Origin: Thermoplasmata archaeon
GTDB lineage: Archaea > Thermoplasmatota > Thermoplasmata > RBG-16-68-12
Reading direction: 5' to 3'
NCBI GenBank assembly: GCA_035557795.1
Contig: DATMDM010000098.1
Coordinates: forward strand, 1 to 62,689
DNA: 62,689 nt
This document shows positions 21,238-38,777 of this stretch, one piece after another. Numbering within the stretch: the first letter of the stretch is position 1; each line of letters starts with the position of its first letter. The position numbers and the translations under genes are program-made. Under the pieces are notes generated by a model. It saw only the letters and a list, made by a program, of their open reading frames with translations, did not search any database and was not told the origin of the DNA.

Positions 21238-24200
21238 TCACAAGTCTTCTTCCTTCGAATCCTCGTCGTCGTTCGTTTCGGACTGGGATGCGGCTTCCTC
21301 GTCTTCCACCGCCTTCTTGACGATCTTCTTCTGGATGAGCGGTTGGGGCGTGATCGCCTTGCGAATCACGCGGCGCGGAATCGCGTCCGTTGCGGGAGCT
21401 CCGGCGGGGGCGCCCGACACGACGGTCGTCGCGGCTTGCGACGCAGAGGGAGTCTCGGACGGCGCGGCCCCACGGATCGGCTGGCGGGCCGCGGATGGGA
21501 CTTGGACGACGGCCGCACCGCCCCCGCCGCCGCTCGGTGGGCGCTGCACTTCGCGCATGAGCGATCCGCACTTGTGGCAGACGTTGGCCGTCACGGAGTT
21601 GAGCGTGCCGCACGTCGGGCACGGCTTCGAGCCCATCTTGCGCATCTCCTCTTCCTCCCGGAGCCAGTCTTCGAACGTCACGAAGGTGGGTTGTTTCTTC
21701 CACCACTCCTGGAAATCGCGGTCCGAGAGATCGCGTCCGAGTTCCTTCGACGCCTCTTGACGCAGTTTCGACACGACTTCGTCGTACTGCAGACGCATCT
21801 TCCCCTCGTAGTCCGCCATTTCGACCTCGCCGGTCGCGAACTCGACGCCGCACTCCGGACACGACTTCACGTCGAGCGGGATCCAAGCCTGGCAGTTCGA
21901 GCACTTCGCCATGTCCTTCTCGAACTCGACCCCGCACTTCGGGCAGGTCGTCGCGTCCTCCGGGATGAAGGCGCCGCACTCGCCGCACTCGACCATCTTG
22001 CCGAGGCCATAGACTTTCCAGTACACCGTGATGCCGGCCACCACCGCGACGGCGGCGCCGAGGATGACCAGGAAGAGCCACCACGGGACGCCGAGGATCG
22101 GGACGGGGCTGCTCAGGAACGGCAGGGTCTTCTTCACCGTGATCGACTGGGTCTGCGGCCCGATGATGCCGGACGACGGCGTGACGACGACGTCGTAGGG
22201 ACCATCCGCGAGCCCCGACGGCACGTTGACGGTGCCGAGGAAGAATCCGTCGCTCTGGGTGACCGTCGTGTTGGACGCCATCACGGCGGCCCCTTGCCGC
22301 AATTCGATTGTGAGTCCGACGCCTGAGATCCCGTTGTTCGTGCTCTGATCCCGGACATACCCGGTGACGCTCAGCGAAGACCCCGGCTCGAGCGTCTGGC
22401 CCGATGTCGGCGAGAGCATCGCGACGTAGCCCAGCGGCGGCTGCACGTTCAGCGTGATTGTCGCCGTGTTGTTCGCCTCCTGCGCGGCTCCGCCCTCGTT
22501 GATTCGGTTGTCCGGATCGACCTTGAGGAGGATCTGCTGGTTGCCGGTGAGGGGAATGCCGCTCACGTTCAGCGAGACGTTCAGGAACGTCCCGATGATC
22601 CGGCCGTCCACCCGACCGATCTGGGCCGCGCCGAAGAACGCCGCGACCGAGACGTTCAACGCGGCGGTCTGGCCCGCATTGTACACGAGGACGTAGATCG
22701 TGAAGGGCTGATTCTGCCTCACGGTCCGCACGCCGGGATAGTCGCCCTGGTGCAACGCCAGGTCCGGCGGGGTGAGCGCATTCACCGAGAACGTTGCATT
22801 GTTGTTGCCCAGAACATAGTCCTTGTTGCGGATGTCGCTCCCCGTCGCGGTCTTCAGGCTGAAGGTCAGGACATGGGCTCCCGTGGACGTCGGGCGCCAG
22901 AGCACCGTGAGCGTCGCGTCGACGCCGGGACTGATGTCGAACGTGACCGGTCCACCGACCCGCTGCGCTCCCTCCCAGACCTCCAGGATCGCTCCCGCGG
23001 CGCGATTCGTCCCGATGTTGTGGGCCACGACTCGCACATGGGCGTCGTTGTTCAGGACCGGGTCGGAGGCGAACTGGACGTCCGCGGACGAAATCGCCAG
23101 GTCGGGCCAGGTGAAGAGCGTGAAGGACCGGGAGAGGATGTTGTTCCGCTCATTCGTCTCACGGGTTACGCCGCCATCGGTGACGGCGGACAGCGGCGGG
23201 TCCACGACCGCGGACACGGTCCGGCTCGACTCGAGGGCGCCGTTCGGCCGCCAGATGATCGTGGCGGTCGTCGTCGCGTTCTTCGGGACGAGCGGGAGGA
23301 CGGTGTCGTTGATCCAGACGCCGGCCGCGATATAGTCGAGCGGGGTGAAGTCCATGAGGCCGTCGCCATTCCGGTCCACGTTGTCCTCGAAGAAGCTCAC
23401 CCGGACGTTGCGGACGTTCACTTGACCGATGTTGCGGATCGTCGCCGTTACCTGAATATCCGTGTTAATCGGCTGCAGTGCAGACGCGCCGTTCCCGCCC
23501 GAGACCGTCATCGCGGTGATGCTGAGGTCTGGGGTCAGGCTGGAGAACGTGAGTTGTGAGAGCGTGTTGCCTGTCACGAGGGCGGAGGCCGGGGCGTCGG
23601 GCTGGTACGTGGTCAGGTCGACGACCGCGGATCCGGTGGCGACGTACGAGTTGTTCAGGATCCGGGCCGAGGTCGTCCGACTCTCCGCGAACGCTCGGTA
23701 CAGGATCGATCCGCCCGGGGCCGAGACGGGCCACGTCGTCGAGTTCGCGAAGTAGATGTCGTCGACCGCGGGGTCCGGGACCGTGAAGGGCGTCAGCGTA
23801 TTCGGGTCGAGGCGTTGGAGCATGATGTGGACATTCGCGTCGGCGAGGAGCGTCCCCGTCCCGTCGACCGCGTTGACGTGGAGCCACCAGTAGCGGCTCA
23901 CCTGGGCGCCTCCGGTGATCATGCCGACCCACCACGAGCCGCTCGGATCGAACGTCTGCACCGAGGTGAGTTGGACGTTCTGAGTGCCGCCGAAGACGAG
24001 TTGGGACGTCTGGACCTGGTTGAACGTGGTGTTCCGGATGTCGAGGTCGACGGTGTTCGCGTTCCCGTCGTCCGTCGTGAAGGCGAGGGTCGTGACGCCC
24101 GTGAGGGTCGCGTCCCAGAGATGCGTCGTCTGAACCGTGTCAATCCAGAGGCCGGGACCGAGGAACCCATCGCGCACCAGGGTCGCGCTCCCGCCGAACA

Positions 24201-25836
24201 GGGTCACGTTCGCGTCGATCGCCGTGTCGGACATCGTGACGCTCGAGGTAGGCCCCTCTTCGCGGAGCATGCCGGGGGAGCCGCGGGCCGCCAACGTGAG
24301 GGCGCTCCCTCGGCTCGTGACCAGCGTCCCGCCGTTCGCGACGTAAAAGGGGAGCGGGTAGTTGCTCCAGACCGTGGAGTTGACCAGGGTCAACCGGCCT
24401 CCCGAGAGGATCTTCACGTACGCCCGCGAACTGCCGTCCGAGCCTTGGTCGACGTACAGGCCGCCGTCGGTGATCGAGACGGAGCCGGAAATCTCGAGAC
24501 AGCTCGACACGGACACGGAGCCGACAATCTGCCGGTCGAACGACCAGGCGGTGACTCCGGTCGGGCACACCTGCAGACCGCTGAAGGACATCGTGACCGA
24601 TTTGGAATTGTTCGCGGCGCTGACCGCCGGGTACGGGTCGTAGAACTCGTCGCCGATCGTGCTCGAGGCCGCGTACGTCACCTGCTGGTGGTAGTTCCCG
24701 AAGGACTCGGCGTTCGGCAGGCTGGCCGTCGTGATCTGGTCCGTGAAGAGCGGGATGAGCGCGAGCCCGTCGGAGTTCGTGCGGTTCCACGCGTTCGTGC
24801 CGCTCGAGGTGCGACCAAGATACCACAGGGTGCGTGAAGTAGGCGTCGTCGCGAGGGCGTTGTCGGGATACTGCGCAGTCGTGCTGCTCGGACTGAGCGT
24901 CGACCAGACGGTCGCCCCGCTCACCGGGATCCCGCTCGAGTCGACGACGGTCGCATAGAGCCATCGCATCAAGTCCACATTGCCGCCCGCGGCGGTGGGC
25001 CGGAACGCCGGCTGCCAGTCCGCTTTCGCGGCCGGGTCTTGGGTGCGGTCGATCGTGATGTTGTACAGGTACGCGTTCGAGGTTCCATCGACGCGCAGCT
25101 CGTTGTGCGCGCCGGCTACGTTCGAGTAGTCCACTCCGAGATAGGAGTCGTAGGAGTACAGGTTGCTCGTCGCGGTCAGGAGGAGGTTTCCGGGGGTGCC
25201 GCCGGGGTATTCGTAGAGCCGTTCGATTCGAGAGCGATACAGGCTCCCGGTCGTGGTCGTCCAGGCCATCAGGGGCGCGTCGTTGTTGTCATCCGTGTTG
25301 ATGCCGAGACCGGAGAGCTCGGAATCGGTGAAGCCGGTGATCCTCGAGTCCGTGACGTTGATCGTGGCGCTCGTGGCGTTGAACCAACCGGGGAATTTCA
25401 GCGAAGCGCCGTTCTTCATCGTGAACCGGCTGTTCGCGCCCGAGACCGTGAAGGCCAGTTTCAGGAAGGGAGAAATCGAGTCCGTCTGGGTCGTGACGAT
25501 CGAGTGGTCGAGCACGAGTTCGCCGCCCGCGTTCACGTTGAGCGCGTAGCCTTCGTGCGATGTGTCCTTGGAAAAACTCAGGCCGCCGTCGGTCAGCGTG
25601 AGGCTGCCGCCGGAGTTGATGCTGATCGTGCCGTCGACCGAATAGAGGATTCCGCTGCACACTTGCGCGTTCGTGATCGTCCAGTCCCCGGTGATGACGC
25701 CACCCACCTGGTCGCAGGTTCCGGCCCGCGCGGCCGGGGCGAGCGCAAGGATCGCAGCGAACAGAGCGCCGAGGGCGACCGACCAAACGATGAGGAGCGT
25801 GGGGGCCCTCGCACTCCGTCCGGCCCGACTAGACAT
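21238..25836 (-). CDS. Giant type I surface protein: signal peptide, duplicated beta-helix-like head, CARDB-like modules, one TM helix, cytoplasmic triple zinc-ribbon tail (paralog 1)
   Basis: 1532 aa. Signal peptide LLIVWSVALGALFAAILALAPAARA-GTCDQ. Three or more PDL[SA]I...N.G CARDB-like modules. TM helix VPWWLFLVILGAAVAVVAGITVYW. Tail ribbons ECGECGAFIPEDATTCPKCGVEF, KCSNCQAWIPLDVKSCPECGVEF and PCPTCGTLNSVTANVCHKCGSLM. Acidic C-terminus. AGGTGG RBS. Confidence 0.85.
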   Translation of the reverse strand: MSSRAGRSARAPTLLIVWSVALGALFAAILALAPAARAGTCDQVGGVITGDWTITNAQVCSGILYSVDGTISINSGGSLTLTDGGLSFSKDTSHEGYALNVNAGGELVLDHSIVTTQTDSISPFLKLAFTVSGANSRFTMKNGASLKFPGWFNATSATINVTDSRITGFTDSELSGLGINTDDNNDAPLMAWTTTTGSLYRSRIERLYEYPGGTPGNLLLTATSNLYSYDSYLGVDYSNVAGAHNELRVDGTSNAYLYNITIDRTQDPAAKADWQPAFRPTAAGGNVDLMRWLYATVVDSSGIPVSGATVWSTLSPSSTTAQYPDNALATTPTSRTLWYLGRTSSGTNAWNRTNSDGLALIPLFTDQITTASLPNAESFGNYHQQVTYAASSTIGDEFYDPYPAVSAANNSKSVTMSFSGLQVCPTGVTAWSFDRQIVGSVSVSSCLEISGSVSITDGGLYVDQGSDGSSRAYVKILSGGRLTLVNSTVWSNYPLPFYVANGGTLVTSRGSALTLAARGSPGMLREEGPTSSVTMSDTAIDANVTLFGGSATLVRDGFLGPGLWIDTVQTTHLWDATLTGVTTLAFTTDDGNANTVDLDIRNTTFNQVQTSQLVFGGTQNVQLTSVQTFDPSGSWWVGMITGGAQVSRYWWLHVNAVDGTGTLLADANVHIMLQRLDPNTLTPFTVPDPAVDDIYFANSTTWPVSAPGGSILYRAFAESRTTSARILNNSYVATGSAVVDLTTYQPDAPASALVTGNTLSQLTFSSLTPDLSITAMTVSGGNGASALQPINTDIQVTATIRNIGQVNVRNVRVSFFEDNVDRNGDGLMDFTPLDYIAAGVWINDTVLPLVPKNATTTATIIWRPNGALESSRTVSAVVDPPLSAVTDGGVTRETNERNNILSRSFTLFTWPDLAISSADVQFASDPVLNNDAHVRVVAHNIGTNRAAGAILEVWEGAQRVGGPVTFDISPGVDATLTVLWRPTSTGAHVLTFSLKTATGSDIRNKDYVLGNNNATFSVNALTPPDLALHQGDYPGVRTVRQNQPFTIYVLVYNAGQTAALNVSVAAFFGAAQIGRVDGRIIGTFLNVSLNVSGIPLTGNQQILLKVDPDNRINEGGAAQEANNTATITLNVQPPLGYVAMLSPTSGQTLEPGSSLSVTGYVRDQSTNNGISGVGLTIELRQGAAVMASNTTVTQSDGFFLGTVNVPSGLADGPYDVVVTPSSGIIGPQTQSITVKKTLPFLSSPVPILGVPWWLFLVILGAAVAVVAGITVYWKVYGLGKMVECGECGAFIPEDATTCPKCGVEFEKDMAKCSNCQAWIPLDVKSCPECGVEFATGEVEMADYEGKMRLQYDEVVSKLRQEASKELGRDLSDRDFQEWWKKQPTFVTFEDWLREEEEMRKMGSKPCPTCGTLNSVTANVCHKCGSLMREVQRPPSGGGGGAAVVQVPSAARQPIRGAAPSETPSASQAATTVVSGAPAGAPATDAIPRRVIRKAITPQPLIQKKIVKKAVEDEEAASQSETNDDEDSKEEDL
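21834..22024 (-). repeat. Near-identical block shared with 30264-30454 (zinc ribbons 1-2 and the membrane-proximal tail)
   Basis: 191 nt at a constant offset of 8430 nt, about 95% identical by eye (about 97% over the last 134 nt). This is far above the identity of the ectodomain middle. Confidence 0.8.
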
Positions 25837-25985: not shown

Positions 25986-26328
25986 TCCGAATTTTCCAGG
26001 AAGTCATCTTTTATCTGGCCTTGGTAATAAAAGAACAGGTTCAATCGACGGCTGTCGTCCCCGCCGGCGCCGCGTCCCCGCACCAACGAGACCCGCGGCC
26101 GTGGCGATCCTCGATGGCCTAGGATCGCACGACTCCTTCGCGCGGTGTCAGACAGGAAGTCCCGCGTTCACGCTCGACTTCGACATATGTCCGTGTACCG
26201 GGAGAAGGGCCGTCCACGCGTGCCTCGTGATTCTCACGCTATCACGGGTTGGTAACTACCACGAACAATTTATATATCGTCGGGTCGGGTGCGAGAGTGT
26301 TCTCCCTAGCCCACCGGGAGGCCATCTC

Positions 26329-27963
26329 ATGCGAACCATCCTCCGCGAAGACGAGTCGGGTGTGTCGGAAGTCATCGGCACGATCCTGATCCTCGCGATG
26401 ACCGTCGTGCTGTTTTCCGTGATCATCGTCTGGGTGTCTGCCATCCCCACGCCCGCGGCGCAGGCCCGGACCGACATGCAGTCCGTGATGAACCCAATCT
26501 ATAACGGGCTCGGTGTGGAGATCGGCGTGAATATCACCCTCACCCACCAGGGCGGCGAGGCGCTGCAGCCCGTGCCGACGATCATTTACGTCACGTCGCA
26601 GCGCGGTACGAACGCCCCGCAGACGGACATCGTCATCCTGCACAAGTTCAACGGCTTCCTGGCGACCCCGAGTGGCCTCCTGGACGGGACCGACAGCGTC
26701 TGGGACATCGGCGAGCGCTGGGCGTACAAGAGCTTCAGCCTCCGGTCCTCGGACCAAATCACGGTCATTATCGTCGATAACCTGAAGAGCGTCATCCTAT
26801 GGAGTGGCCCAATGAATGCGCCGGCCGGCACGCGTCCCCCGGTCTTTGTCGATAAATGGACGGACGGAATCTTGGCCACGGAAGAGATCGACCCAGTCCA
26901 GGCGACCCAGGGATTCTACATCTTCGCGAAGCTCATGGACCCGGACAACGACCTGAATGTGAATTCGGTTTACGTGACGATCACCGCATGGTATGGGTCA
27001 GGCACTTCGTGTGCCGCCCCCCAACAGATGAAAGATAACGGGGTTTCCCCGGACCGCATCGCCGGAGACAAGATTTTCTCCTTCGGAGCGAACGCCTGCA
27101 CGAAACCTCCGTATCCCGCCCTCAGCTGGGCCGGATCCATCATTCTGCTAAATGCGACTGACTTGAAAGGCCACCAGACGACGACCCGCCTCGTCTTGGA
27201 CGTGGTTGCGCCCCTCACCGGCGGAGGTGGGAATGGCGGGACGATCCCGAGCCAGCTGTGGCAATACATCGGCTACGTCCAGATTCGGACCGGGGAGGTC
27301 TGGGTGTCGAACCTCAGTAACCCGTACAACTCGCCGAGCACGTACCAGCCGTACCGGGTCACGCGAGCCCAACTTAACGGGAACGGCGGAGCCATATTCC
27401 ATTACAAGATGGTGAACCACGGCAACACCACGATCTTCATCGATGGATGGAGTGAAGCGTTCTTCCAGAACACCCAGTCCGCGAGCGGTGCCGTCGCCTT
27501 CATTGTCGCGCCGTGCAGCACGGCGATCGCGGCGAACGCGGGCGGAGTCGCACCGTACCCCGGCACGGCTGGGAACATCAACGATTTCCAGTACGCCCAT
27601 ACCGGCTTGCCGGTCGGGTGTTCCGTGACGAGTCCTATCGCGGTCTTCGACATCAACACTTTCAACCAGGACACCGGTGGCACCCCGTACGTGATGTTAG
27701 CGTACGCCAAGACACCATTCTCCACGGGCTCTGCCAATGTCTGGGGCTCCGCCACCTTCTTCATGAGCATCCTCGTCTCGGGCATGGCGGGTCCCGCGAA
27801 CTACACGTACGCGCAACTCGCCGGGACCGGACCCAACCCGAACAGCTGCGGCGGGCTCGGACCGGCGTACAACCCCTTCAACCACCTGAACGACCCGATC
27901 GTGGCGTGCCGGACCTCGTGGTACGCCCAAGTGATTCCGTTCATCGGGATGGTCGTGTACTAG
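26329..27963 (+). CDS. Large secreted protein with archaeal pilin-type N-terminus (class III signal peptide)
   Basis: Start at ATG 26329 with a GGGAGG RBS and TATA AATTTATATATC at 26267-26278. MRTILREDESG-VSEVIGTILILAMTVVLFSVIIVWV matches the archaeal pilin N-terminal domain pattern. 544 aa. Confidence 0.75.
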   Translation: MRTILREDESGVSEVIGTILILAMTVVLFSVIIVWVSAIPTPAAQARTDMQSVMNPIYNGLGVEIGVNITLTHQGGEALQPVPTIIYVTSQRGTNAPQTDIVILHKFNGFLATPSGLLDGTDSVWDIGERWAYKSFSLRSSDQITVIIVDNLKSVILWSGPMNAPAGTRPPVFVDKWTDGILATEEIDPVQATQGFYIFAKLMDPDNDLNVNSVYVTITAWYGSGTSCAAPQQMKDNGVSPDRIAGDKIFSFGANACTKPPYPALSWAGSIILLNATDLKGHQTTTRLVLDVVAPLTGGGGNGGTIPSQLWQYIGYVQIRTGEVWVSNLSNPYNSPSTYQPYRVTRAQLNGNGGAIFHYKMVNHGNTTIFIDGWSEAFFQNTQSASGAVAFIVAPCSTAIAANAGGVAPYPGTAGNINDFQYAHTGLPVGCSVTSPIAVFDINTFNQDTGGTPYVMLAYAKTPFSTGSANVWGSATFFMSILVSGMAGPANYTYAQLAGTGPNPNSCGGLGPAYNPFNHLNDPIVACRTSWYAQVIPFIGMVVY

Positions 27964-28277
27964 GGGATTGCGAGTCAAGGCTTGGCGATTGCCAACGCCC
28001 CATTCGATTGAGCCGCTCCGTCCGACCGCTAGCGGCTGGATCCGAGGTCCGACACGTTTACGAACTCCTGCGCATTCCAAACTGCTCGGAATGACTGCCC
28101 GGGGGGCAAGGGCACTCTGCCCGAAGCGGCGCTGCAAGGTGAAGGTGCCACTTCTGGTCGCGATAGCGCGAAGACATGAATGCGCATATCGGGGGTACCC
28201 AGCAGGATGTTGAGCACCGGTTGTACCGCGATCGAACCGGGCCCGGGCGAGCCGGGCGTCTGGGACGAATCCCATAG

Positions 28278-28655
28278 ATGAGCCGCATGTTCGATCCCAA
28301 TATGATCCATCCGCTTCGCGACGGCGGTATCGTATGGGTCTTCTATTTCCGAAAGTCCGAGGTCCCGCAGCGGGAACTCGAGATCGTTTCATGGGCCAAA
28401 CGCGGACAGCTCCTGCGCCTCGCGGTCACCTTCGGATCGGTGGACCCGGAAACGCGCGAGTACAGGAGTACGACGGCTGTCCATCTCTGGCAAATGGACA
28501 CCCTGCCCTCGACGGTCTCTTGGCGCGAGGTCTTCGTCCATGTGTTTACGCATGAGCCATTGCATCACGTGATCGGCCGGTTTCTTGCCGAGATCGCGGA
28601 GCGCGGAGACCAGGAATGGGTCATCCAGCGGCTCGGCGACGGTCGTTGGTGGTAG
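28278..28655 (+). CDS. Hypothetical protein with an HExxH motif
   Basis: 125 aa containing VFTHEPLHHVIGRF. No RBS seen. Confidence 0.4.
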   Translation: MSRMFDPNMIHPLRDGGIVWVFYFRKSEVPQRELEIVSWAKRGQLLRLAVTFGSVDPETREYRSTTAVHLWQMDTLPSTVSWREVFVHVFTHEPLHHVIGRFLAEIAERGDQEWVIQRLGDGRWW

Positions 28656-29048: not shown

Positions 29049-29056
29049 GAAGCGAT

Positions 29057-29758: not shown

Positions 29759-29776
29759 GGGTTGGGGAAGGCCGGC

Positions 29777-32500
29777 TCAGAGATCGTCGGACGACGCATT
29801 CTCGCCGTTCTGGCCTTCCGAACTCTCGCCTTCCTTGCCTTCGATCGGCTTCTTGATGACGCGCTTCTGCACGATCGGTGCGGGCGCGTTGGTCGGCCCG
29901 GGCGGAGACATCGGCCCGCGGGCCTGGATTCTGCGCGCCGGAGCGCCTGCGACGACCGCTCCACCGCTCGGTGGGCGCTGATCGCGCATCAAGGATCCGC
30001 ACTTGTGGCAGACCGTGGCCGTCACGGAGTTGAGGGTGCCGCACGTCGGGCACGGCTTCGAGCCCATCTTGCGCATCTCCTCTTCCTCGCGGAGCCAGTC
30101 TTCGAAGGTGAGGAAGGTCGGCTGCTTGCGCCACCACTCCTGGAACTCGGTTTCGCTCAGGCTGCGGCCCAGCTGTCGGGAGGCTTCTTGCTTGAAGCGA
30201 GCGATGACCTCGTCGTACTGGAGGCGCATCTTCTCCTTGTAGTCGGCCATCTCGAGCTGACCCGTCGCGAACTCGACGCCGCACTCCGGGCACTGCTTCA
30301 CGTCGACCGGGATCCAGGCCTGGCAGTTCGAGCACTTCGCCATGTCCCGCTCGAACTCGACCCCGCACTTCGGGCAGGTCGTCGCGTCCTCCGGGATGAA
30401 GGCGCCGCACTCGCCGCACTCGACCATCTTGCCGAGGCCGTAGACTTTCCAGTAGAGCGACACGCCGATCGCGACGGCCGCTGCGGCCGCAAGGATGACC
30501 AGGAAGAGCCACCACTCGATGCCGAGGACCGGGACCTTCTGGAACAGGAAGGACGACGATCTCTGCACGGAGATCGTGCGGGTGTCCGGCTGAATCAGTG
30601 TGGTCGCCGGCGTCACGACGATCGTGTACGACCCGTCCTGGGTGGTCTGGGGCACCGTGATCGTCCCGATGAAGAAGCCGTCACTCGCCGACATCGTGGA
30701 GTTCGTCGCGAGGACCGTGGCGCCGCTGCGCAGCTCGATGTTCAGGACGACGCCGCCGATGCCGTTCGAGCCCGAGTCCCGAACGTATCCCGTGACGCCA
30801 AGCGAGTTGCCGGAGACGACGGATTGGCCGCTCGACGGGGTCAGAATCGCGGTGAACCCGGCCGGCGGTGGCTGGACGGTCAAGGTGATGTTGGCGAAGT
30901 TGTTGCTCTCCTGCGCGGCTCCGCCCTCGTTGATCGTGTTGTCCGGGTCGACGATGAGCTCGAGCGTGTGCGACCCGAGGGCGCCGATGCCGGCCACGTT
31001 CAACGTCTGGTTCAGGGACGTGACGACCGTCAGGCCGTTCACCCGGGCGACCTCGCTCGCGCGGTTTCCGTCAAGGTAGGCCCCGACCGAGACCGCCGTC
31101 GCGGTGGTCTGCCCCTGGTTCGAAATCAGGGCGTATGCCGTGAAGGGCTGGTTCTGCAGGACCGTCATCGTGGCGCTCGCCGGCTGCACGGTCAGGTCTG
31201 GTCCCGTGCGCACCTGTACAGGGAGGGACACCGAGACCTGCTTCGTGTTGTTGTCCGCGTTGATCGCCGGGTACGGGTCGAAATTCACGCCGCCCGGGCC
31301 CGTCGTCGCGCCAAAGGCGATCGTCAGCTGGTAGTTGCCGAACGATTCCGCGTTCGGTAGGCTCGCGGTCGTGATCAGGTCCGTGTACAACGGGATTGTG
31401 GCGAGGCCGTTCGCATCCGTGCGGTTCCACGCGTTCGCGCCGCTCGCGGCCTTCCCGAGGTACGAGAGGGTCCGCGCGCTCGGCGTCGTGGAGAGACCGT
31501 TGTCCGGATACTGGGCGGTCGTCGTGCTCGGACTGAGGGTCGACCAAATCGTCGCGCCGCTCACCGGGAACCCGGTCGAATCGATGACGGAGGCCCGGAG
31601 CCACCGCAAGAGGAACACGTTTCCGCCCGCGGCCTGCGGCACGTACGCGGGCTGCCACGACGACTTGAGGACGGGGTCCTCGGTTCGGTCGACCGTGACG
31701 TTGTACAGGTACGCGTTCGAGGTTCCGTCGACCTGCAGCGTGTTATGCAGCCCGAGGACGTTGGAGAAGTCGACTCCGATGTACGTGTCGTACGCAAACA
31801 GGTTGCTGGTGGCGGTCAAGCCAAGGTTGCCTTCGACGGGGCCCGTGGCATTGCCGCTGGGCGCGCTCGCGTTCTCATAGATCCGTTCGATTCGGGATCC
31901 GTAGAGGCTCGCGGTCGTGGACGCCCAGGAGATCAACGGACTGTCGTCGTTGTCGTCCTGATACACTCCGACGCCGAAGAGCTCGGTCGATGTGAAACCG
32001 GTGATTCGCGAGCCGGTGATGTCGATCGTCGCGCCGGTCGCGTTGAACCAACCGGGGAATTTCACGGTCGCGCCGTTCTTCATCGCGAAGTGGCTGCCCG
32101 CGCCCGAGACTGTGAAGGCGAGCTTCAGGTACGGCTTGATTGCATCCGTCTGGGTCGTGACGATCGAGTGGTCGAGGACCAGTTCGCCGCCCGCGTTCAC
32201 GTTGAGCGCGTAGCCTTCATGAGCCGTATCCTTGGAGAAACTCAAACCTCCGTTGACCAGCGTGAGGCTGCCTCCGGAGTTGATGTTGATCGAACCGTCG
32301 ACCGAGTAGACGATTCCTGTGCACACCTGAGTCGTGGTGACCGTCCAGGTCCCGGTGATGACGCCACCGACCTGGTCGCAGGTTCCGGCCCGTGCGGCCG
32401 GGCTGAGTGCCACAAAGGCGGCGAAGAGGCCACCCAGGGCGACGGACCAAATGATCAAACACGTCAGGGCCTTCCCATTCCGTTCGGATCGGCTAGACAA
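29777..32500 (-). CDS. Giant type I surface protein with cytoplasmic triple zinc-ribbon tail (paralog 2)
   Basis: Start re-set to TTG 32500 by alignment with paralog 1 (TTGTCTAGC vs ATGTCTAGT, (M)SSRSERNGKALTCLIIWS vs MSSRAGRSARAPTLLIVWS), with AGGAGG 8 nt upstream. 907 aa. It has the same head, one CARDB-like module, a TM helix and the tail. Confidence 0.85.
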   Translation of the reverse strand: MSSRSERNGKALTCLIIWSVALGGLFAAFVALSPAARAGTCDQVGGVITGTWTVTTTQVCTGIVYSVDGSININSGGSLTLVNGGLSFSKDTAHEGYALNVNAGGELVLDHSIVTTQTDAIKPYLKLAFTVSGAGSHFAMKNGATVKFPGWFNATGATIDITGSRITGFTSTELFGVGVYQDDNDDSPLISWASTTASLYGSRIERIYENASAPSGNATGPVEGNLGLTATSNLFAYDTYIGVDFSNVLGLHNTLQVDGTSNAYLYNVTVDRTEDPVLKSSWQPAYVPQAAGGNVFLLRWLRASVIDSTGFPVSGATIWSTLSPSTTTAQYPDNGLSTTPSARTLSYLGKAASGANAWNRTDANGLATIPLYTDLITTASLPNAESFGNYQLTIAFGATTGPGGVNFDPYPAINADNNTKQVSVSLPVQVRTGPDLTVQPASATMTVLQNQPFTAYALISNQGQTTATAVSVGAYLDGNRASEVARVNGLTVVTSLNQTLNVAGIGALGSHTLELIVDPDNTINEGGAAQESNNFANITLTVQPPPAGFTAILTPSSGQSVVSGNSLGVTGYVRDSGSNGIGGVVLNIELRSGATVLATNSTMSASDGFFIGTITVPQTTQDGSYTIVVTPATTLIQPDTRTISVQRSSSFLFQKVPVLGIEWWLFLVILAAAAAVAIGVSLYWKVYGLGKMVECGECGAFIPEDATTCPKCGVEFERDMAKCSNCQAWIPVDVKQCPECGVEFATGQLEMADYKEKMRLQYDEVIARFKQEASRQLGRSLSETEFQEWWRKQPTFLTFEDWLREEEEMRKMGSKPCPTCGTLNSVTATVCHKCGSLMRDQRPPSGGAVVAGAPARRIQARGPMSPPGPTNAPAPIVQKRVIKKPIEGKEGESSEGQNGENASSDDL
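30264..30454 (-). repeat. Near-identical block shared with 21834-22024
   Basis: See the partner feature. Confidence 0.8.
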
Positions 32501-32580
32501 CCCAAGACCTCCTGAGGTCGAGTCGGCCGAACGCATCCGGAGGACTACGACCGGTGGGCATGTTGCGCGGGCCATCCGGG
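32501..32580 (-). promoter_or_regulatory. Conserved 80-nt 5' leader of paralog 2
   Basis: Aligns without gaps to 25837-25916. Confidence 0.55.
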
Positions 32581-32791: not shown

Positions 32792-33928
32792 TCAGATCAC
32801 TTTCTTCTTCATGACCTTCTTCACGCTGACGGGGGCCTTCTTCGACGCTTTGTCGTCATCGGCCATCCGGTGCCCGCATGCGTAGCACATGATCGCATCG
32901 GACGAGATCATCGTGCCACAGGCTGGACAAGGGATCTCGGACTCTCCCTCCGTCTCAGATGTTTCCTCCGCGGCCGCTTCGTCCTGGAGACGGTGCCCAC
33001 ATGCGTAGCACATGATCGCATCGGACGAGATCATCGTGCCACACGCCGGACAGGCCATTTCTGATTCGCCTGAAGCGGACTCCGCCTGTATGGCGACCTT
33101 CGCGACGGGTTTCGCCATCTGCGCGACCGCGACCGGCACCTGCGCTGCCGCCTTCGCGACCGCGGGCGCCGGACTGGATGGGACCGGTTGAGGCCGCAAT
33201 CCCGCGGACGACACCGGCGCCGTGGGCACCGGTCTCACGGAGACGGCAGGCCCTGCAGCAGGCGTCGAAGGCATCGCCTTCATCGACTGTTCTTGGGCGA
33301 TCAACTGTTTCTCCCGCTCGAGGAGCCGCTTCCCTTCTTCGGCGATCTTCGCGCGGGCCGCCGCAAAGTTTTCCTCCTCGACCGCGAGCTTCTTTTCGCG
33401 CTCCATGAGCTCGCGGTTCCGACCGATCTGGGCGTCGAGCGTGGCCTTCTGGTCTTCGAGGAGCTTCACAATCTGCTCTTGCCTCGTGGCGATCTCGGTC
33501 TTCCGCGCTGCGATGTCCTTCACATGGGTGACAGCCTCGGAGTCACGTCGAGCGATGTCCTCTTCCCTCCGCACGAGCGAATCGAGGCGTTTTGCGAGTT
33601 CCTGCTCGCGCGACACCAGCGAGTTCTCCTTCGCGAGCACCTGTTGCCTCGTGGAATCGAATTGCTGCGCCTGCTCGGCAATCGCCCGCTCGCTCTGCTC
33701 GAGCTCCTTCTCTCGGGCCCGCAGCCCTTTCTCCCGGCCGACGAGCGAGTCCCTCTCTTCCGAGAGCGAGGTCCGTTCCTGTTCGAGGACCCGGCGGTCT
33801 TCCTCGATTTTGGCCGCTTGATCCTGAAGGGCGGCCTCGCGCTCCCTTCGTTCCGCATCCTGGGACTTCAGGCTTTCTTCTACTTTCTTCAGTGCATCCA
33901 GCGCGTCTAGGATCGATCCTTCGGCCAT
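32792..33928 (-). CDS. Coiled-coil protein with Pro/Ala-rich linker and two C-terminal zinc ribbons
   Basis: About 220 aa of heptad-like E/R/K/L/Q sequence, then a P/A/V-rich linker, then ACPACGTMISSDAIMCYACGHRL and PCPACGTMISSDAIMCYACGHRM. GGAGGG RBS. Confidence 0.8.
   Translation of the reverse strand: MAEGSILDALDALKKVEESLKSQDAERREREAALQDQAAKIEEDRRVLEQERTSLSEERDSLVGREKGLRAREKELEQSERAIAEQAQQFDSTRQQVLAKENSLVSREQELAKRLDSLVRREEDIARRDSEAVTHVKDIAARKTEIATRQEQIVKLLEDQKATLDAQIGRNRELMEREKKLAVEEENFAAARAKIAEEGKRLLEREKQLIAQEQSMKAMPSTPAAGPAVSVRPVPTAPVSSAGLRPQPVPSSPAPAVAKAAAQVPVAVAQMAKPVAKVAIQAESASGESEMACPACGTMISSDAIMCYACGHRLQDEAAAEETSETEGESEIPCPACGTMISSDAIMCYACGHRMADDDKASKKAPVSVKKVMKKKVI
32868..32929 (-). 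repeat. Intragenic direct repeat copy A (zinc-ribbon unit)
   Basis: 62 nt, 59/62 identical to 32991-33052. Period 123 nt (41 codons). Confidence 0.85.
32991..33052 (-). repeat. Intragenic direct repeat copy B (zinc-ribbon unit)
   Basis: See copy A. Confidence 0.85.
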
Positions 33929-33993: not shown

Positions 33994-34713
33994 TCATGAA
34001 TTCCCTCCCGCCTCGAAGATCGGCCCGAGGACGGTGAGTCCGCCTTTCCGGACCTCGATCGCGTGTTTCTCCATCGAGTGATCGACGGATCGCATCTTCT
34101 CGACCTGGAGGTACCGCACGAGCTTCCCGCGGGACCGGTCCAGTCCCAGCACAACGATGCCATCGACGAGAAACCCCTCGTTTCCAAGGAGCTGACTCTC
34201 CCCGTTCGGCGCCCGCTCCATGACCACGAGGCACGTGAGTTCGTTGTCCCGGAGCATCTTGAAGAAGTAGAACATCCGCTTCCGCATGTTGGTCGTGTTC
34301 TCCATGAGCGAGTAGAGGGCGCCGAGGGAGTCGAGGGCGAACAGCTTGAACTTGTGACCGTGCACCTTGCGGTAGTGACCGATCATCCGCTCGATGAAGG
34401 CGAGGTAGTCCGTCTGGTCTTCCGGGCCGACGACTGCATCGATCTCCCGGAGATCTGTGAAGTCGCTGATCTGCATGTTCATCGAGAGTTCGACACCGAG
34501 GGACTCCATGTTCCGTAGGTGCGACTGGACGGTCTCTTCGAGGGTGGTGTACAGCCCGAACTCTCCGGTGTCTTTCAAGTAACGCGACATGAGCGTGTAG
34601 CAAAACGAAGTCTTCATCGACCCGGGCGGGCCCGTGACGAGGATGACCTTCGGTGGGACGATGTCGCTCCGAATCACTTTGTCCAGACCGTCGATTGCAC
34701 TGCGAAACGCCAT
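33994..34713 (-). CDS. KaiC-like / RecA-superfamily ATPase, single domain
   Basis: GLDKVIRSDIVPPKVILVTGPPGSMKT (Walker A) and LFALDSLG (Walker B). Directly upstream of the coiled-coil gene on the same strand. Confidence 0.9.
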   Translation of the reverse strand: MAFRSAIDGLDKVIRSDIVPPKVILVTGPPGSMKTSFCYTLMSRYLKDTGEFGLYTTLEETVQSHLRNMESLGVELSMNMQISDFTDLREIDAVVGPEDQTDYLAFIERMIGHYRKVHGHKFKLFALDSLGALYSLMENTTNMRKRMFYFFKMLRDNELTCLVVMERAPNGESQLLGNEGFLVDGIVVLGLDRSRGKLVRYLQVEKMRSVDHSMEKHAIEVRKGGLTVLGPIFEAGGNS

Positions 34714-34844: not shown

Positions 34845-36320
34845 GTGTCGACGAGTTCGAGGTGTCGGCTTACGCCAGCGAAGGAAACGAAAGTCTGTCC
34901 CGTCTGTGACACTCCAATCGACGCGGACGCACGCGTGTGCCCTTCGTGCCAGACGGACCTGACCTTGTTCGACATCAGCGGGGGCACGGATCCGCTCGAG
35001 ATGCCCGTCAAGGACGGTCGGAGCATCGACGAGATCCTCGCCTCGATCATGGAAGGCAAGGAAGACCACCGCGAAATCTTCGAGACGCTCAAGAACGTCG
35101 CCCGCGAAACCCCGGAATCGGCCGAGGTCGGCGCCGAGGCGAAACCGAGACCCGCCACGGAGGCCGCGGCCGATCTGGGCGAGCAGTTCCTCTGCCCCGT
35201 CTGCGAGACGCTCGTCTCGGCGGACGCGACCGTGTGTCCGGGTTGCGGGGCGGAATTCTCCGAAGGCGAGGCGACGGAATACGAATGCCCCGTGTGCAAG
35301 ACCTCGGTCCCGGCGGACGCGGACCGCTGCCCGAGTTGCGGGGTCCGGTTCGCGGAAGACGCGCAGACCGCAGCCGCCCCGATGGGGAAGATCCGGCCCC
35401 CTCCGGTCGTCGAGACCGTCCGGGCGGAGGCTCCCATGGCGCGGTCGTTCGCAGGTCCCGCGGCCACCGCGAAGCCGGCTCGGAGCCCCCTCCAGAACCG
35501 GATCGACCAACTGCGGCGGACCCGGCGGGAATCGGAGCGCCGCATTCCATCCGGAGACCGAAAGCTCCTCTACCGCGAACTCCCGAAATTAGTGAACGAG
35601 GTGAAGCCTCTCTTGGTCTCGGCCAAACGGATCGGGCTCGAAATCGAGGAGGGGAAACGGATCATCAACGACGCGATCCAGGCGGGCAAGGGACGCGACA
35701 TCGAGCGCTCGGTCATGCTCATCGCGGACGCCCGGCGCACGCTCGACGTGGCGTTCGTCGACTTCATCGGCGGACAAATCGATACATTCCTCCAAGAACT
35801 CCGCGCCGCGAAGGGGGATGCAGGCGTCCAGGCGGCGACCCCGAAGCTCCAAGAGGCCGTCGGTCGGCTGGAAGCCGGCGACTACGACGCGGCCTGGGAC
35901 CGGCTCCAGTTGGCGCTCGGCACGTTCCAGATCGATGCGAAGGATTTCCACGAAGCCCGCCAGATGATCGATGGCGGCGATCGCCTCGCGCGCGAGGTGC
36001 GGGCCATGGGGATGGACCTCCGCGACGCCGAGCGACTCCTCCGCCAAGGCCGCGAATCGCTCGACCGGCGGGACGCCTCAGGCGCCTTACGGTTCGGGAA
36101 GCAGGCGCAAGAGCGCATGAAGCGAGACGTCCCGGCTTTCGTTCAAGAGGAGATGCGGAAAGCGCGCAACGAACTGCTGGACTTGAAGGTGCGAGGCAAC
36201 GACCTCTCCCGACCGATCGGCATCCTCAAGGAGGCGAGCACCCTCGTGAAGCAGGGGTCCTGGGGAGATGCGCTCCGCCAGATCCGCGAGTTTCACAAGG
36301 CGGTTCGAAGTCTCGAGTAG
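34845..36320 (+). CDS. Triple zinc-ribbon protein with C-terminal helical-repeat domain
   Basis: GTG at 34845; other in-frame starts include 34767. Ribbons VCPVCDTPIDADARVCPSCQTDL, LCPVCETLVSADATVCPGCGAEF and ECPVCKTSVPADADRCPSCGVRF. About 270 aa of repeated helical hairpins follow (AGKGRDIERSVMLIADA, EAGDYDAAWDRLQLA, DRRDASGALRFGKQA, KQGSWGDALRQIRE). Confidence 0.75.
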   Translation: MSTSSRCRLTPAKETKVCPVCDTPIDADARVCPSCQTDLTLFDISGGTDPLEMPVKDGRSIDEILASIMEGKEDHREIFETLKNVARETPESAEVGAEAKPRPATEAAADLGEQFLCPVCETLVSADATVCPGCGAEFSEGEATEYECPVCKTSVPADADRCPSCGVRFAEDAQTAAAPMGKIRPPPVVETVRAEAPMARSFAGPAATAKPARSPLQNRIDQLRRTRRESERRIPSGDRKLLYRELPKLVNEVKPLLVSAKRIGLEIEEGKRIINDAIQAGKGRDIERSVMLIADARRTLDVAFVDFIGGQIDTFLQELRAAKGDAGVQAATPKLQEAVGRLEAGDYDAAWDRLQLALGTFQIDAKDFHEARQMIDGGDRLAREVRAMGMDLRDAERLLRQGRESLDRRDASGALRFGKQAQERMKRDVPAFVQEEMRKARNELLDLKVRGNDLSRPIGILKEASTLVKQGSWGDALRQIREFHKAVRSLE

Positions 36321-36331
36321 GTCCTCGACAA

Positions 36332-38491
36332 TCACGGATACCGGATGACTTCCATCTCTCGCTCGAGTGTCTTGAGCTCTTGGTCCTTCAACGTCGCGGG
36401 CCCGAGGGAAATGATGAACGCGTAGCGACTCTCGGAGATCGCATCCAGCAGCCGTCGCACGAACATCAACACGGCGTCGAACGAACTGTTCGAAACCAGG
36501 TATTCGATTCCGTCCAAGAGGATGGCCCCGCGAGTCTGCTTCCCCATGAAGTCCTCGATCTCGTAGACGATTCGCTCGAGCGCAGGGGCGATCGTCTCCT
36601 CCGCAGAGCCCTCGCGGTCCGTGAGCCATAGGACGCGTTCCGTCGGCAAGTCATGGGCCTGCCGCACGCGTTTCGGGTTCGTGCGGGTGATGACCAGGCC
36701 GCCGCCCCCGCCACCGAGGAAATCCGTCAAGAGGCGGAACGCCCGGGCGGGTCGCTCCTCCTCTATCAGGTAGCTGCGGCCTGGTGTAAGCTCGTGGTTT
36801 GCCGTCGCGGCGCTCGGCGGACGGTCCGCCCGCTCCTCCGCAATCCGCTCATGCATCGGTTGCGCGATCGGTTCCGCCGTCGGTTCCGCGGTCGCACCGG
36901 ACAAGACTTCGCGGGCGAGATCCTGGGTGAGCGGGCGATGCATCAACGACGAGAACGCGACGACCCGATTGAAGGCCCCACCGAGCTCTCGGACGTTGTT
37001 GGCCACGAGGTTCGCGATGCACGTCAGCACTTCCCCCTCGATGGCGATGTTCTCGTCGCGAGCGCGACGCTCGAGGATGGTCACGCGCATCAGGAGGTCG
37101 GGAGGCTCGATGCCGGCGACGAGCCCGGATTCGAAACGCGAGATCAGGCGCTCGTCGAGGTTCGGGATCGACTTCGGGGCGCGATCGCTTGCCAGGACGA
37201 TTTGCTTCTGCGTGTCGTGCAAATCATTGAACGTGTGGAACAGTTCCTCGTGAACCTCCGGCATGCCGCTCAGGAACTGAATGTCATCGATCAGAAGGCA
37301 ATCCATGCCGCGCATGCGCTCCCGGAACGCGGAGAGGGTACCGACCTCCTTCGCGTTGGCGAGGCTCGACGCGAACGTTTCGCAGGTCATGTACAGCACT
37401 TTCGATTCCTTCGCATGGGACGCGACGTAATTCCCGATCGCATGGAGGAGATGCGTCTTCCCGAGGCCCGGCCCGGACGTGATGAGGAGCGGATTGTACT
37501 CCTTGGCCGGCTGCTTCGCGACCGCAACCGCGGCGCCGTGGGCGAACCGGTTGCTCTCTCCGACGATGAACGACTCGAACGTGTACGCCTGGACGAGATT
37601 CGTCGCCGCATCCCGCGCGGGCAACGATTCTTCGAGGCCCTTCCGCGCGACGTCTTCGGTCGAGTATGGACCGCCTTCGGGCCGCAGGGCCTGCTGTTGC
37701 TTCATGACGAGATCCAGGACCTTTCTCGTGCGCTCTTGCGAGTCTCGCCCTCGCTCCAGCTCGACCTGGCGACGCGCTTCGATCTGGCGCAGGCTCTCCA
37801 CCGCATCCCGGAGGCTTTCGACCTCCGTGTCGATGTCGGGGTGTCTCACGGGGTCCTTGAGTTTCTCCCGGAGAATCGCGGCTCGGGATTCGAATCCGGA
37901 AACGTCGAGGCCGGCCAACATCTCGCCGACGGCTTCGGCCTTCTTCACGCCGTCGCGCATCGCGACGACGGACGCTGCGAGGATTGATGGTTCGGCATCG
38001 AGGTTCGATTCGACGGAGGAGACGTCGTACCCTTTGTCCTTCCACGCGCGGATCTGCTTCTCGACCTCCGACCGTTCCATTGTCTGCGGGATCTTGGTCT
38101 TCTTGACGACCTTCGCGGGCCGTTCGAGGATCGAGTCCGCGTACTCTCTCACCAAACCGTCCATGTCGACTCGGGCGTGGAGCTCCAAGATGCACGACTC
38201 GTCGTAGGAGTCCTGCCAGACTTTCTTCAGCGCGCTCCGCCCGCGGTCTTGTGTGCCGTCCCGATGGTACAGGCTCGCCTCCGGGTTCCCGCCGCGGAGG
38301 AGGACGATTCCCTCGGACCGTTTCCCGCTCCCGCCCCGAACCGTGCGGACGTAGCCGGAGAACGAGTACTTCTTCAAATCGATGAGGAGCTGCTTGAGCG
38401 CGTTGGGACCGCCCCGCGTGGTACGGATGAGTTTTCCCTCTGGAAGGAGGAGGTCCTGGGGCGTAGAGGTCCCTCGGTGGCGACGGCCCAT
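36332..38491 (-). CDS. Fusion protein: DUF4388-like N-domain, coiled linker, bacterial DnaA-type AAA+ module, DUF835-like C-domain
   Basis: FESFIVGESNRFAHGAAVAVA...YNPLLITSGPGLGKTHLLHAIGN...CLLIDDIQFL...EELFHTFNDLHDTQKQIVLASDRAPKSI...ERLISRFESGLVAGIEPPDLLMRVTIL...NVRELGGAFNRV is collinear with DnaA domain III. The C-terminus GRSYLIEEERP...GLVITRTNPKRV...VLWLTD...ILLDGIEYL fits DUF835. ATG 38491 has CCTTTTTAGAGG 17 nt upstream, consistent with a leaderless transcript. The tracked start is 38551. Confidence 0.85.
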   Translation of the reverse strand: MGRRHRGTSTPQDLLLPEGKLIRTTRGGPNALKQLLIDLKKYSFSGYVRTVRGGSGKRSEGIVLLRGGNPEASLYHRDGTQDRGRSALKKVWQDSYDESCILELHARVDMDGLVREYADSILERPAKVVKKTKIPQTMERSEVEKQIRAWKDKGYDVSSVESNLDAEPSILAASVVAMRDGVKKAEAVGEMLAGLDVSGFESRAAILREKLKDPVRHPDIDTEVESLRDAVESLRQIEARRQVELERGRDSQERTRKVLDLVMKQQQALRPEGGPYSTEDVARKGLEESLPARDAATNLVQAYTFESFIVGESNRFAHGAAVAVAKQPAKEYNPLLITSGPGLGKTHLLHAIGNYVASHAKESKVLYMTCETFASSLANAKEVGTLSAFRERMRGMDCLLIDDIQFLSGMPEVHEELFHTFNDLHDTQKQIVLASDRAPKSIPNLDERLISRFESGLVAGIEPPDLLMRVTILERRARDENIAIEGEVLTCIANLVANNVRELGGAFNRVVAFSSLMHRPLTQDLAREVLSGATAEPTAEPIAQPMHERIAEERADRPPSAATANHELTPGRSYLIEEERPARAFRLLTDFLGGGGGGLVITRTNPKRVRQAHDLPTERVLWLTDREGSAEETIAPALERIVYEIEDFMGKQTRGAILLDGIEYLVSNSSFDAVLMFVRRLLDAISESRYAFIISLGPATLKDQELKTLEREMEVIRYP

Positions 38492-38777
38492 TCCCGAGGC
38501 CCCTCTAAAAAGGTTCCAACCTAGTTTCCTCGTTTGAGAACCGTGAGGCATCCGCCGCGGCGGTCGACGCGCACTCGCGATGCGAAAGGACTATGACGGT
38601 TGCAAAGTCAGGGCATAACAGACCTGGCTCGGATATCGGACACTCTCATTGCGAAGTCCGACGTGCTAATCTTCCGCGCTTCCAAGTCGGCCCACAGTCG
38701 GACTACTTCGGGCGGCGGAAAGCCTCATCTGGTTTCCACGAGCCGTGCCGCAATCACCTGGTTTTGGGAAGGTCGAG

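Follow-up and report, generated by a model that had tools for sequence, protein, structure and literature searches.

A conserved set of KaiC-like, zinc-ribbon and DnaA–DUF835 fusion genes, usually encoded beside surface proteins and a type IV pilus-like machine in Thermoplasmata

Introduction

KaiC-like ATPases have reportedly been proposed to act as signalling hubs in archaea. According to the survey by Makarova, Koonin and Albers (2016, PMC4858521), KaiC ATPases, cytoplasmic coiled-coil proteins and C-terminally anchored proteins resembling those of surface layers (S-layers) are repeatedly encoded in archaeal pilus loci, where a role as regulators or accessory components has been proposed for them. 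The same survey cites HP0958 of Helicobacter pylori, a coiled-coil hairpin with a zinc ribbon that is required for flagellum formation. In the archaellum, the nucleotide and phosphorylation state of the KaiC-like ArlH governs its binding to the PilB-type ATPase ArlI (as cited in PMC12448462), and DUF835, an inactivated KaiC (iKaiC), is an output domain of archaeal response regulators, including those of Thermoplasmata (PMC5847659). Here we analyze a 62,689-nucleotide contig of a Thermoplasmata archaeon (DATMDM010000098.1 of assembly GCA_035557795.1; hereafter, the window). It encodes a KaiC-like ATPase, a coiled-coil protein with zinc ribbons, a helical protein with three ribbons and a fusion of a DnaA-type ATPase with DUF835, next to two ribbon-tailed surface proteins and a type IV pilus-like operon (Table 1). 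We find that the four soluble proteins are inherited together, and that their genes are usually located beside those of giant surface proteins and of a type IV pilus-like machine.

Conservation of the gene neighbourhood

Orthologues were collected by scanning one genome per species with the most conserved peptides of the window's KaiC-like ATPase and were found in 225 species genomes. The best 80 of these were analyzed, among them metagenome-assembled genomes (MAGs) labelled Proteinoplasmatales SG8-5, Methanomassiliicoccales and several RBG lineages; only loci with sufficient flanking sequence enter the denominators given below. KaiC is the slowest-evolving gene of the set, its product being 81–93% identical across loci where phosphoglycerate kinase (PGK) is 69–81% identical, and the window's protein recurs with 100% identity in soil MAGs named 'Methanobacteriota archaeon EA_6/EA_12' and 'Thermoplasmata archaeon'.

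In the close loci L001–L003 the gene order around the DnaA fusion is the same, at 61–72% identity, and PGK, prolyl-tRNA synthetase and other housekeeping genes are likewise syntenic; more distant loci were therefore compared. A gene for a coiled-coil protein with one to three ribbons starts 50–180 nt after KaiC in 62 of 66 loci, and the DnaA–DUF835 fusion lies within 10 kb of KaiC in 35 of 42. The next gene encodes a surface protein with a transmembrane (TM) segment and a ribbon tail in 22 of 40 loci and a giant Pilin_N protein in 5 (together 27/40); the Pilin_N giants have 1700–2550 residues, and the single one scanned contains CARDB, Big_5 and VWA domains. Just beyond the ribbon-tailed surface gene, an orthologue of the pilus ATPase (T2SSE_b) is present in 17 of 20 loci. 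A first-pass annotation of this DNA had left conservation in related genomes to be checked; the neighbourhood proved to be kept across many Thermoplasmata species, also where flanking synteny is broken.

Two kinds of rearrangement were seen. In one Thermoplasmata clade, four genes lie between the DnaA–DUF835 gene and KaiC (L081, 2775–9871; L075, 2789–9871), coding for a Yip1-family membrane protein whose N-terminus carries a zinc ribbon, and for ThiC, GyrB and GyrA. The fusion gene stays there with its convergent three-ribbon partner, though parted from KaiC. The gyrase genes were considered as a functional clue and rejected as a clade-specific insertion. In L040 and L042 the upstream region has been replaced, and KaiC is retained together with the coiled-coil and surface genes and the pilus operon. 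In place of the DnaA-fusion/ribbon pair, there are small open reading frames (ORFs) and a gene with an N-terminus that by eye looks like a serine recombinase (L040, 1–8100; also L042), which suggests an integrated mobile element at these loci.

Zinc ribbons of the module

A six-frame scan of the window identified exactly 11 non-overlapping CxxC-x10-CxxC ribbons, all of them in four proteins and in the same distribution (3 + 3 + 2 + 3 over surface protein 1, surface protein 2, the coiled-coil protein and the three-ribbon protein) that the first-pass annotation had counted. Three extra CxxC...CxxC matches (21892–21945, 30323–30376 and 35235–35297) merely span two neighbouring ribbons. The remaining ~47 kb of the window contains a single other CxxC...CxxC site, at 653–712, with x12 spacing; it sits in a 104-residue ORF (404–718, minus strand) and is of a different ribbon type. 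Both surface proteins, the coiled-coil protein and the three-ribbon protein all exceed the Pfam gathering cut-offs for DZR, Zn_ribbon_3 and Zn_Ribbon_1. By their motifs, the ribbons are of the two-CxxC-knuckle DZR/Zn_ribbon_3 type and are predicted to bind metal. They had been described as copies of one 23-residue module found in the four proteins. The ribbons themselves are real; the consensus is loose and amounts to generic DZR/Zn_ribbon_3, and departures from it are seen in the coiled-coil protein's ribbons and in the third ribbon of the tails. Since the fold is generic and each protein has its own ribbon subtype, speaking of one module overstates the relationship.

The background frequency of the ribbon was estimated from 83 related loci (~1.2 Mb, genes called), which comprise 546 background genes. 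These genes contain 6 ribbons of the x10 type, or 0.03 per 1000 residues, as against 2.0–5.5 per 1000 residues in orthologues of the coiled-coil, three-ribbon and surface proteins. The ribbon is thus enriched ~100-fold in module proteins over the flanking genes and is not commonly present in proteins of these genomes, at least in the vicinity of the locus; its clustering, which could have been a matter of chance had unrelated genes carried it equally often, exceeds chance.

The KaiC-like ATPase

The KaiC-like ATPase recognized by the first-pass annotation is confirmed by PF06745 (117 bits against a cut-off of 26.6). It consists of a single RecA-like domain and matches KaiC, PH0186 and PH0284 among sequences in the PDB. 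The catalytic glutamates of the EE pair (E59, E60) and D128 of Walker B are conserved. In Walker A, which has the sequence GPPGSMKT, Met (residue 33) takes the place of the Gly that precedes Lys in the canonical GxxxxGK[ST]; this Met is invariant across orthologues, and the search pattern G[SA]MKTSFC matched the 225 species.

The protein is not a circadian KaiC, having one domain as opposed to tandem CI and CII (~500 residues) and scoring 89 bits against 408 for NF006799 and 52.5 against 546 for TIGR02655; no match to KaiA or KaiB was obtained in Pfam scans of the neighbouring genes. Nor is it ArlH/FlaH (NF052589, 23.8 bits against 215; NF004723, 29.4 against 194), and no genes for archaellin, ArlF/G or ArlCDE were found at the locus in Pfam scans.

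The DnaA–DUF835 fusion and its N-domain

The fusion comprises a conserved α/β N-domain (~14–116), a helical region (140–290), DnaA domain III of the AAA+ type with its lid (~295–535), a linker and DUF835 (~570–719), so that the Bac_DnaA and DUF835 profiles bear out the first-pass annotation for these two parts. The DnaA part scores 204.7 bits with PF00308 and is 50–53% identical to domain III of Bacillus subtilis DnaA (8btg/8bv3, E = 3.5e−75); an AlphaFold2 model of the AAA+ module superposes on DnaA at a root-mean-square deviation of 1.2 Å. Across 46 sequences there is no variation in Walker A, Walker B, the box VII arginine or sensor II. Judged by these similarities, the AAA+ part qualifies as a genuine DnaA domain III with its catalytic motifs intact. 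By contrast, neither domain IV, the helix-turn-helix that binds DnaA boxes, nor domain I is present, as the fusion has no Pfam match to Bac_DnaA_C or DnaA_N, and TIGR00362 covers only positions 99–341 of 437 with a score (309.3) below its cut-off (343.9). The fusion therefore does not qualify as a conventional replication initiator. Its DUF835 domain scores 89.3 bits with PF05763 (cut-off 33.1) and lacks the P-loop; the strand-loop position is occupied by TRTNPKR, and R603, P606, R608 and R610 are invariant. Relatives of the fusion number in the thousands; among the matches listed both domains are kept, and all those with a taxon name are from Thermoplasmata.

The N-terminus had been read as DUF4388-like. 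The isolated N-terminal 130 residues give no PF14332 match at E ≤ 5, and the DUF4388/PATAN assignment was rejected. AlphaFold2 models this region as an α/β domain with moderate confidence; a Foldseek search with the whole model was dominated by DnaA. An exhaustive search with the N-domain retrieved 111 cluster representatives, in nearly all of which it is located at or near the N-terminus. The domain is combined with coiled coil, DnaA and double ribbon; with coiled coil and double ribbon; with DUF835, followed in L086 by a small DnaA-like gene; or with coiled coil and a marginal helix-turn-helix match that lies below the Pfam cut-off. In addition, the DnaA fusions of the distant loci L059, L074, L075 and L081 carry a ribbon of their own, between the helical region and the AAA+ module. 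Because such permutations and fusions are classic fusion evidence, N-domain, DnaA-type ATPase, inactive KaiC, coiled coil and ribbons appear to form one functional network. In L084 (3424–13581), adjacent genes encode N-domain proteins of 1355 residues (coiled coil–DnaA–double ribbon) and 996 residues (coiled coil–double ribbon), and are followed by a gene for a gingipain-like secreted Peptidase_C25 protein of >910 residues.

The coiled-coil and three-ribbon proteins

The coiled-coil protein consists of ~210 residues of coiled coil, with weak matches to SMC and RNase Y coiled-coil profiles, a Pro/Ala-rich linker, two zinc ribbons and a basic C-terminal motif, VKKVMKKKVI. The two ribbons (32861–32944 and 32984–33067) are identical over 20 residues (CPACGTMISSDAIMCYACGH), while only 69 of 84 nucleotides match, so that the repeat has been kept by selection at the protein level and is not a recent duplication. 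The motif VKKV[LM]KK occurs in 56 of 70 coiled-coil orthologues and in 1 of 546 background genes; it resembles the basic motif VVQKKVIKKP of the surface tails. At loci where a ribbon-tailed surface gene is absent, three ribbons, as opposed to two, are often present in the coiled-coil protein (L038, L039, L041, L044, L051–L053, L058 and L070). The correlation is partial, with two ribbons in L045, L050, L066 and L074.

The C-terminal domain of the three-ribbon protein is all-helical (~275 residues), with an AlphaFold2 pLDDT above 90 for residues 215–490. This domain has no Foldseek fold match in the PDB below E = 0.09 and no PDB sequence match; Foldseek and PDB searches with the protein returned designed helical repeats and, for the ribbons, RanBP-type fingers, none of them significant. 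About 195 homologues were collected, and all taxon-named ones come from Thermoplasmata, Thermoplasmatota or 'Euryarchaeota archaeon'.

Surface proteins and pilus-like genes

The two surface proteins had both been called giant; this suits the first, of 1532 residues, whereas the second has only 932. Surface protein 1 is a paralogue of surface protein 2 with ~600 extra ectodomain residues and 18 N-x-S/T sequons. The predicted layout, as seen in surface protein 2, is signal peptide, head domain, CARDB, TM segment, a tail in the order ribbon–ribbon–helix–ribbon, a basic motif and an acidic end. Pfam CARDB confirmed the CARDB-like modules proposed for both proteins, and the beta-helix-like head proposed along with them gave no profile match. 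Kyte-Doolittle hydropathy picks out residues 14–32 and 1247–1265 in surface protein 1 and 39–57 and 683–701 in surface protein 2. The former segment of each pair is signal-like and ends in ARA|G; the latter is a single C-terminal TM segment followed by K-rich sequence. The same method detected no TM segment in the four soluble proteins. On the basis of hydropathy, both read as putative type I membrane proteins and the ribbons of the surface proteins are most likely cytoplasmic, as the first-pass annotation had it, with no sign of an extracellular topology.

Each tail holds 12 CxxC cysteines. Its core of 148 residues (two ribbons, a helical segment of ~65 residues and a third ribbon) is 86% identical between the two proteins. 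Beyond it, a linker of low complexity leads to a conserved basic motif (IPRRVIRKP…VVQKKVIKKP) and the acidic end. Across lineages the tail core is 54–95% identical to that of the window, compared with 28–71% over partial alignments for the ectodomains, and whole surface proteins range from ~900 to 2040 residues. By this measure, constraint within the surface proteins is strongest in the predicted cytoplasmic tail. A protein search with the tail core retrieved mostly short fragments from contig ends, all from Thermoplasmata, and was uninformative as to other ectodomains.

The secreted pilin-type protein that the first-pass annotation had placed between the surface genes is supported by Pilin_N and TIGR02537 and has a class III signal peptide (…ESG|VSEVIGTILIL…); its orthologues lie between two surface genes in L001, L007, L011, L014, L020 and L025. 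The pilus operon, overlooked in that annotation, is the most consistent outer neighbour. Its domains (T2SSE twice, T2SSF twice, PilB3_C and DUF7289), together with the Pilin_N protein, mark the region as an archaeal type IV pilus locus. The MFS gene at the position between operon and surface protein 1 is kept in only a subset of loci and is probably a passenger. A squalene cyclase gene has been noted in clade 1 pilus loci of Thermococci (PMC4858521). In the window, a 317-residue protein with repeats of the squalene-hopene-cyclase type is encoded ~3 kb upstream of the pilus operon (9395–10348, plus strand).

Functional interpretation

The reading that we favour, while granting it somewhat less than an even chance, is that of a Thermoplasmata-specific cytoplasmic hub centred on KaiC, which would be docked via ribbons and coiled coils and would control or anchor the surface proteins and the pilus-like machine. 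In such a hub, the DUF835 domain may bind to, or co-assemble with, the KaiC ring and thereby couple the fusion to KaiC, and the DnaA-type module would oligomerise on binding ATP. Ribbons, coiled coil and basic motifs would serve for docking and scaffolding, recruiting the surface-protein tails, and probably the pilus ATPases, to a membrane-proximal complex. The nucleotide or phosphorylation state of the ATPases could then set the assembly, position or activity of the surface proteins or of the pilus-like structure; the tuning of ArlI by ArlH in the archaellum motor would be a parallel for such control. Signalling from outside to inside via the tails would be an equally possible direction. Three points favour a functional link: conservation within the surface proteins is highest in the tail, the ribbon also occurs inside distant DnaA fusions, and DnaA, DUF835, coiled coil and DZR turn up in different combinations with the N-domain. 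A bolder form of the idea, which we regard as doubtful, is a novel transmembrane coupling apparatus of wall-less Thermoplasmata: the three-ribbon tails would be held by a DnaA-type AAA+ oligomer, an iKaiC/KaiC ring and coiled-coil and helical scaffolds that bear ribbons, internal ATP turnover would control or respond to the surface proteins and pilus-like machine outside, and a bacterial replication-initiator ATPase would have been recruited to the envelope.

Several observations weigh against a hub. In 13 of 40 loci no surface gene follows the coiled-coil gene, and in L039, L041, L044, L045, L050, L051 and L053 the four-gene module, or KaiC and the coiled-coil gene alone, lies among housekeeping genes. 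Since the cytoplasmic genes occur without a surface gene or beside pilin-anchored giants that have no tail, the tail is not essential to the module; the cytoplasmic genes, and especially the KaiC/coiled-coil pair, are rather its core, and the surface proteins are frequent, non-obligatory neighbours. The genes fall into three separate transcription units: KaiC with the coiled-coil and surface genes, the ribbon-helical gene by itself, and the DnaA fusion. The pilus operon runs convergently to the surface-protein genes and is not co-transcribed with them, and the wider region is largely syntenic among closer relatives. Judged by its profile matches the ribbon is a generic fold. ATPase activity of KaiC is not assured, because Met replaces the Walker A Gly, and BLASTP gave no alignment between the neighbouring KaiC and the DUF835 region. 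The transmembrane signalling or anchoring apparatus driven by P-loop ATPases that the first-pass annotation had envisaged is accordingly upheld in part: conservation, ribbon enrichment, tail constraint and fusions speak for it, and the dispensability of the tail to the module speaks against it.

Three other explanations have to be weighed against a KaiC-centred hub. In a rather unlikely one, the role is structural: the giant glycoproteins would form an S-layer-like coat on a wall-less cell, with tails pinned to a membrane-associated cortex of coiled-coil ribbon proteins that the ATPases only remodel, and the pilus operon would be a bystander. The predicted architecture of the surface proteins does match the S-layer-like layout given in PMC4858521 (signal peptide, large sequon-rich ectodomain, single C-terminal TM segment), their tail is extremely conserved, and the basic VKKV[LM]KK of the coiled-coil protein, to which the tails have a similar motif, could lie on the membrane. 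However, the KaiC/coiled-coil pair is retained where the next gene encodes a tail-less, pilin-anchored giant or no surface protein at all, and two regulatory-type ATPases with an iKaiC output domain suit control better than a static scaffold.

Quite improbable, in our view, is a DNA-linked function, in which the DnaA-type AAA+ module would oligomerise on DNA, the ribbons would bind nucleic acid, and the system would couple replication, segregation or DNA uptake by the pilus to the membrane. Zinc ribbons often bind nucleic acids and bacterial type IV pilus machines take up DNA, which would fit, as would the 50–53% identity of the AAA+ module to B. subtilis domain III with all catalytic motifs retained and the gyrB–gyrA genes between DnaA fusion and KaiC in one clade. 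That adjacency is limited to the one clade, however; archaeal replication is initiated by Orc1/Cdc6, the fusion lacks the domains (IV and I) named above, and Pfam scans found no nuclease, helicase or competence gene in the locus. Moreover, the basic residue of 'flaGKeqtq' in B. subtilis DnaA, which we take to be involved in single-strand contacts, is replaced in the aligned 'flsGMpevh' of the fusion. We consider it very improbable that there is no system at all, that is, that unrelated genes joined by inherited synteny in one archaeal class share a very common zinc-ribbon fold by chance. The match of the ribbon to generic Pfam families, the synteny of PGK, prolyl-tRNA synthetase and other housekeeping genes in L001–L003 and the separate transcription units would all be expected then, but gene pairs survive where the flanks differ, ribbons are far denser than in 546 neighbouring genes, permutations and fusions join N-domain, DnaA, DUF835, coiled coil and DZR, and the cytoplasmic tail is more constrained than the ectodomain.

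Other features of the window

The window has a GC content of ~63% and is of the type expected for an archaeon of the Thermoplasmata. The gene map (Table 1) draws on called ORFs, GC at third positions and profile searches. The interval 27963–29777, from the pilin gene to surface protein 2, holds only small non-conserved ORFs, and the 256-residue membrane protein encoded there in L001 has no counterpart. A second set of KaiC type lies ~5 kb upstream of the pilus operon (5468–8042, minus strand); in it, a 257-residue KaiC (5746–6519, PF06745 E = 2e−52) overlaps a 508-residue GvpD-like/KaiC-like ATPase (6516–8042), after which comes a 93-residue ORF with no Pfam match. Farther away, a TMEM175-family potassium-channel homologue (44342–45025, plus strand; PF06736 E = 8e−22) and a Ras/Roc-family small GTPase (51200–52045, plus strand; PF00071 E = 1e−34) are encoded. 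The GTPase gene adjoins one for an ELP3-like radical SAM/GNAT protein (52046–53737, minus strand); this pair is also adjacent in L002, and the GTPase is found at the edge of L003 as well.

Table 1. Genes and zinc ribbons of the locus, in window coordinates
Feature	Position	Strand	Remarks
Type IV pilus-like operon	13403–19862	+	DUF7289 pilin-like protein, PilB-type ATPase, two TadC/PilC-like membrane proteins, second ATPase; Pfam T2SSE, T2SSF, PilB3_C
MFS transporter	19870–21003	−	between pilus operon and surface protein 1; Pfam MFS_1
Surface protein 1	21238–25836	−	1532 aa; CARDB, DZR, hydropathy
Surface protein 1, ribbons	21934–21987, 21850–21903, 21568–21621	−	six-frame scan
Pilin_N secreted protein	26326–27963	+	545 aa; Pfam Pilin_N E = 6.4e−11, TIGR02537
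Surface protein 2	29777–32575	−	932 aa; CARDB, DZR, hydropathy
Surface protein 2, ribbons	30365–30418, 30281–30334, 29999–30052	−	six-frame scan
Coiled-coil ribbon protein	32792–33928	−	378 aa; Pfam Zn_ribbon_3 E = 1.8e−17
Coiled-coil protein, ribbons	32999–33052, 32876–32929	−	six-frame scan
KaiC-like ATPase	33994–34713	−	239 aa; Pfam PF06745 E = 1.1e−33
Three-ribbon protein	34845–36320	+	Pfam DZR, Zn_ribbon_3
Three-ribbon protein, ribbons	34896–34949, 35193–35246, 35286–35339	+	six-frame scan
DnaA–DUF835 fusion	36332–38491	−	719 aa from likely start; Pfam Bac_DnaA E = 1.3e−60, DUF835 E = 2.4e−25
Phosphoglycerate kinase	from 39308	+	beyond the fusion gene

Comparison with known systems

In a full-text literature search, neither the DnaA–DUF835 fusion nor archaeal surface proteins with ribbon tails nor the gene set itself were found to be described; the 2017 paper on KaiC hubs lies outside the coverage of this search and may mention part of the neighbourhood. 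The general association of KaiC, coiled-coil and S-layer-like proteins with archaeal pilus loci is already published, and what is unusual here is the repurposed bacterial DnaA module, the zinc-ribbon network and three domains without known relatives. Structural and interaction studies could be directed at these three domains, which are the N-domain of the fusion, the helical C-terminal domain of the three-ribbon protein and the tail core of 148 residues. Thermoplasmata, almost wholly uncultured, abound in soils, sediments and oceans, and how their cell surface is built and controlled is largely obscure. Should the proposed hub exist, it would be a concrete and testable case for KaiC-like ATPases as archaeal signalling hubs, and would place a bacterial DnaA ATPase module, ~50% identical to that of Bacillus DnaA, at work outside replication.

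The window shares with the archaeal type IV pilus loci of PMC4858521 the PilB/VirB11-type ATPase(s), TadC-like and Pilin_N proteins, a large surface protein with a single predicted C-terminal TM segment, a KaiC-like ATPase and a cytoplasmic coiled coil. In contrast, the available text of that survey of 168 genomes does not describe tails with zinc ribbons, a ribbon-bearing coiled-coil protein, the helical ribbon protein or the DnaA–DUF835 fusion and, unlike the loci presented there, the cytoplasmic genes of the window type also persist without nearby pilus genes. The archaellum genes (ArlH (FlaH), ArlI and ArlX/ArlCDE) likewise combine a KaiC-like ATPase of one domain with a PilB-type ATPase, a coiled-coil scaffold and a polytopic platform protein; the window's KaiC, however, is far below the ArlH/FlaH cut-offs, there is no archaellin, ArlF/G or ArlCDE/X, and the DnaA–iKaiC fusion and ribbon proteins are added. 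HP0958, as presented in the same survey, resembles the coiled-coil protein in that its cytoplasmic coiled coil leads into a zinc ribbon at the C-terminus and in being associated with a surface-filament machine. No sequence relationship between them was detected (Pfam DZR/Zn_ribbon_3 only), and in the family found here two to three ribbons come after a long Pro/Ala linker and before a basic C-terminal motif.

With bacterial DnaA/Hda, the fusion has in common the domain III core and lid, Walker A and B, the box VII arginine and sensor II, and differs in being without domains I/II and the DnaA-box-binding domain IV, in its archaeal host and in its iKaiC C-terminus. As in the REC–DUF835 regulators (Galperin et al. 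2018, PMC5847659), DUF835 would be a signalling output in Thermoplasmata, and in the window it adjoins an active-looking KaiC; the input side of the fusion, by contrast, consists of a novel N-domain and a DnaA-type AAA+ module instead of a receiver domain.

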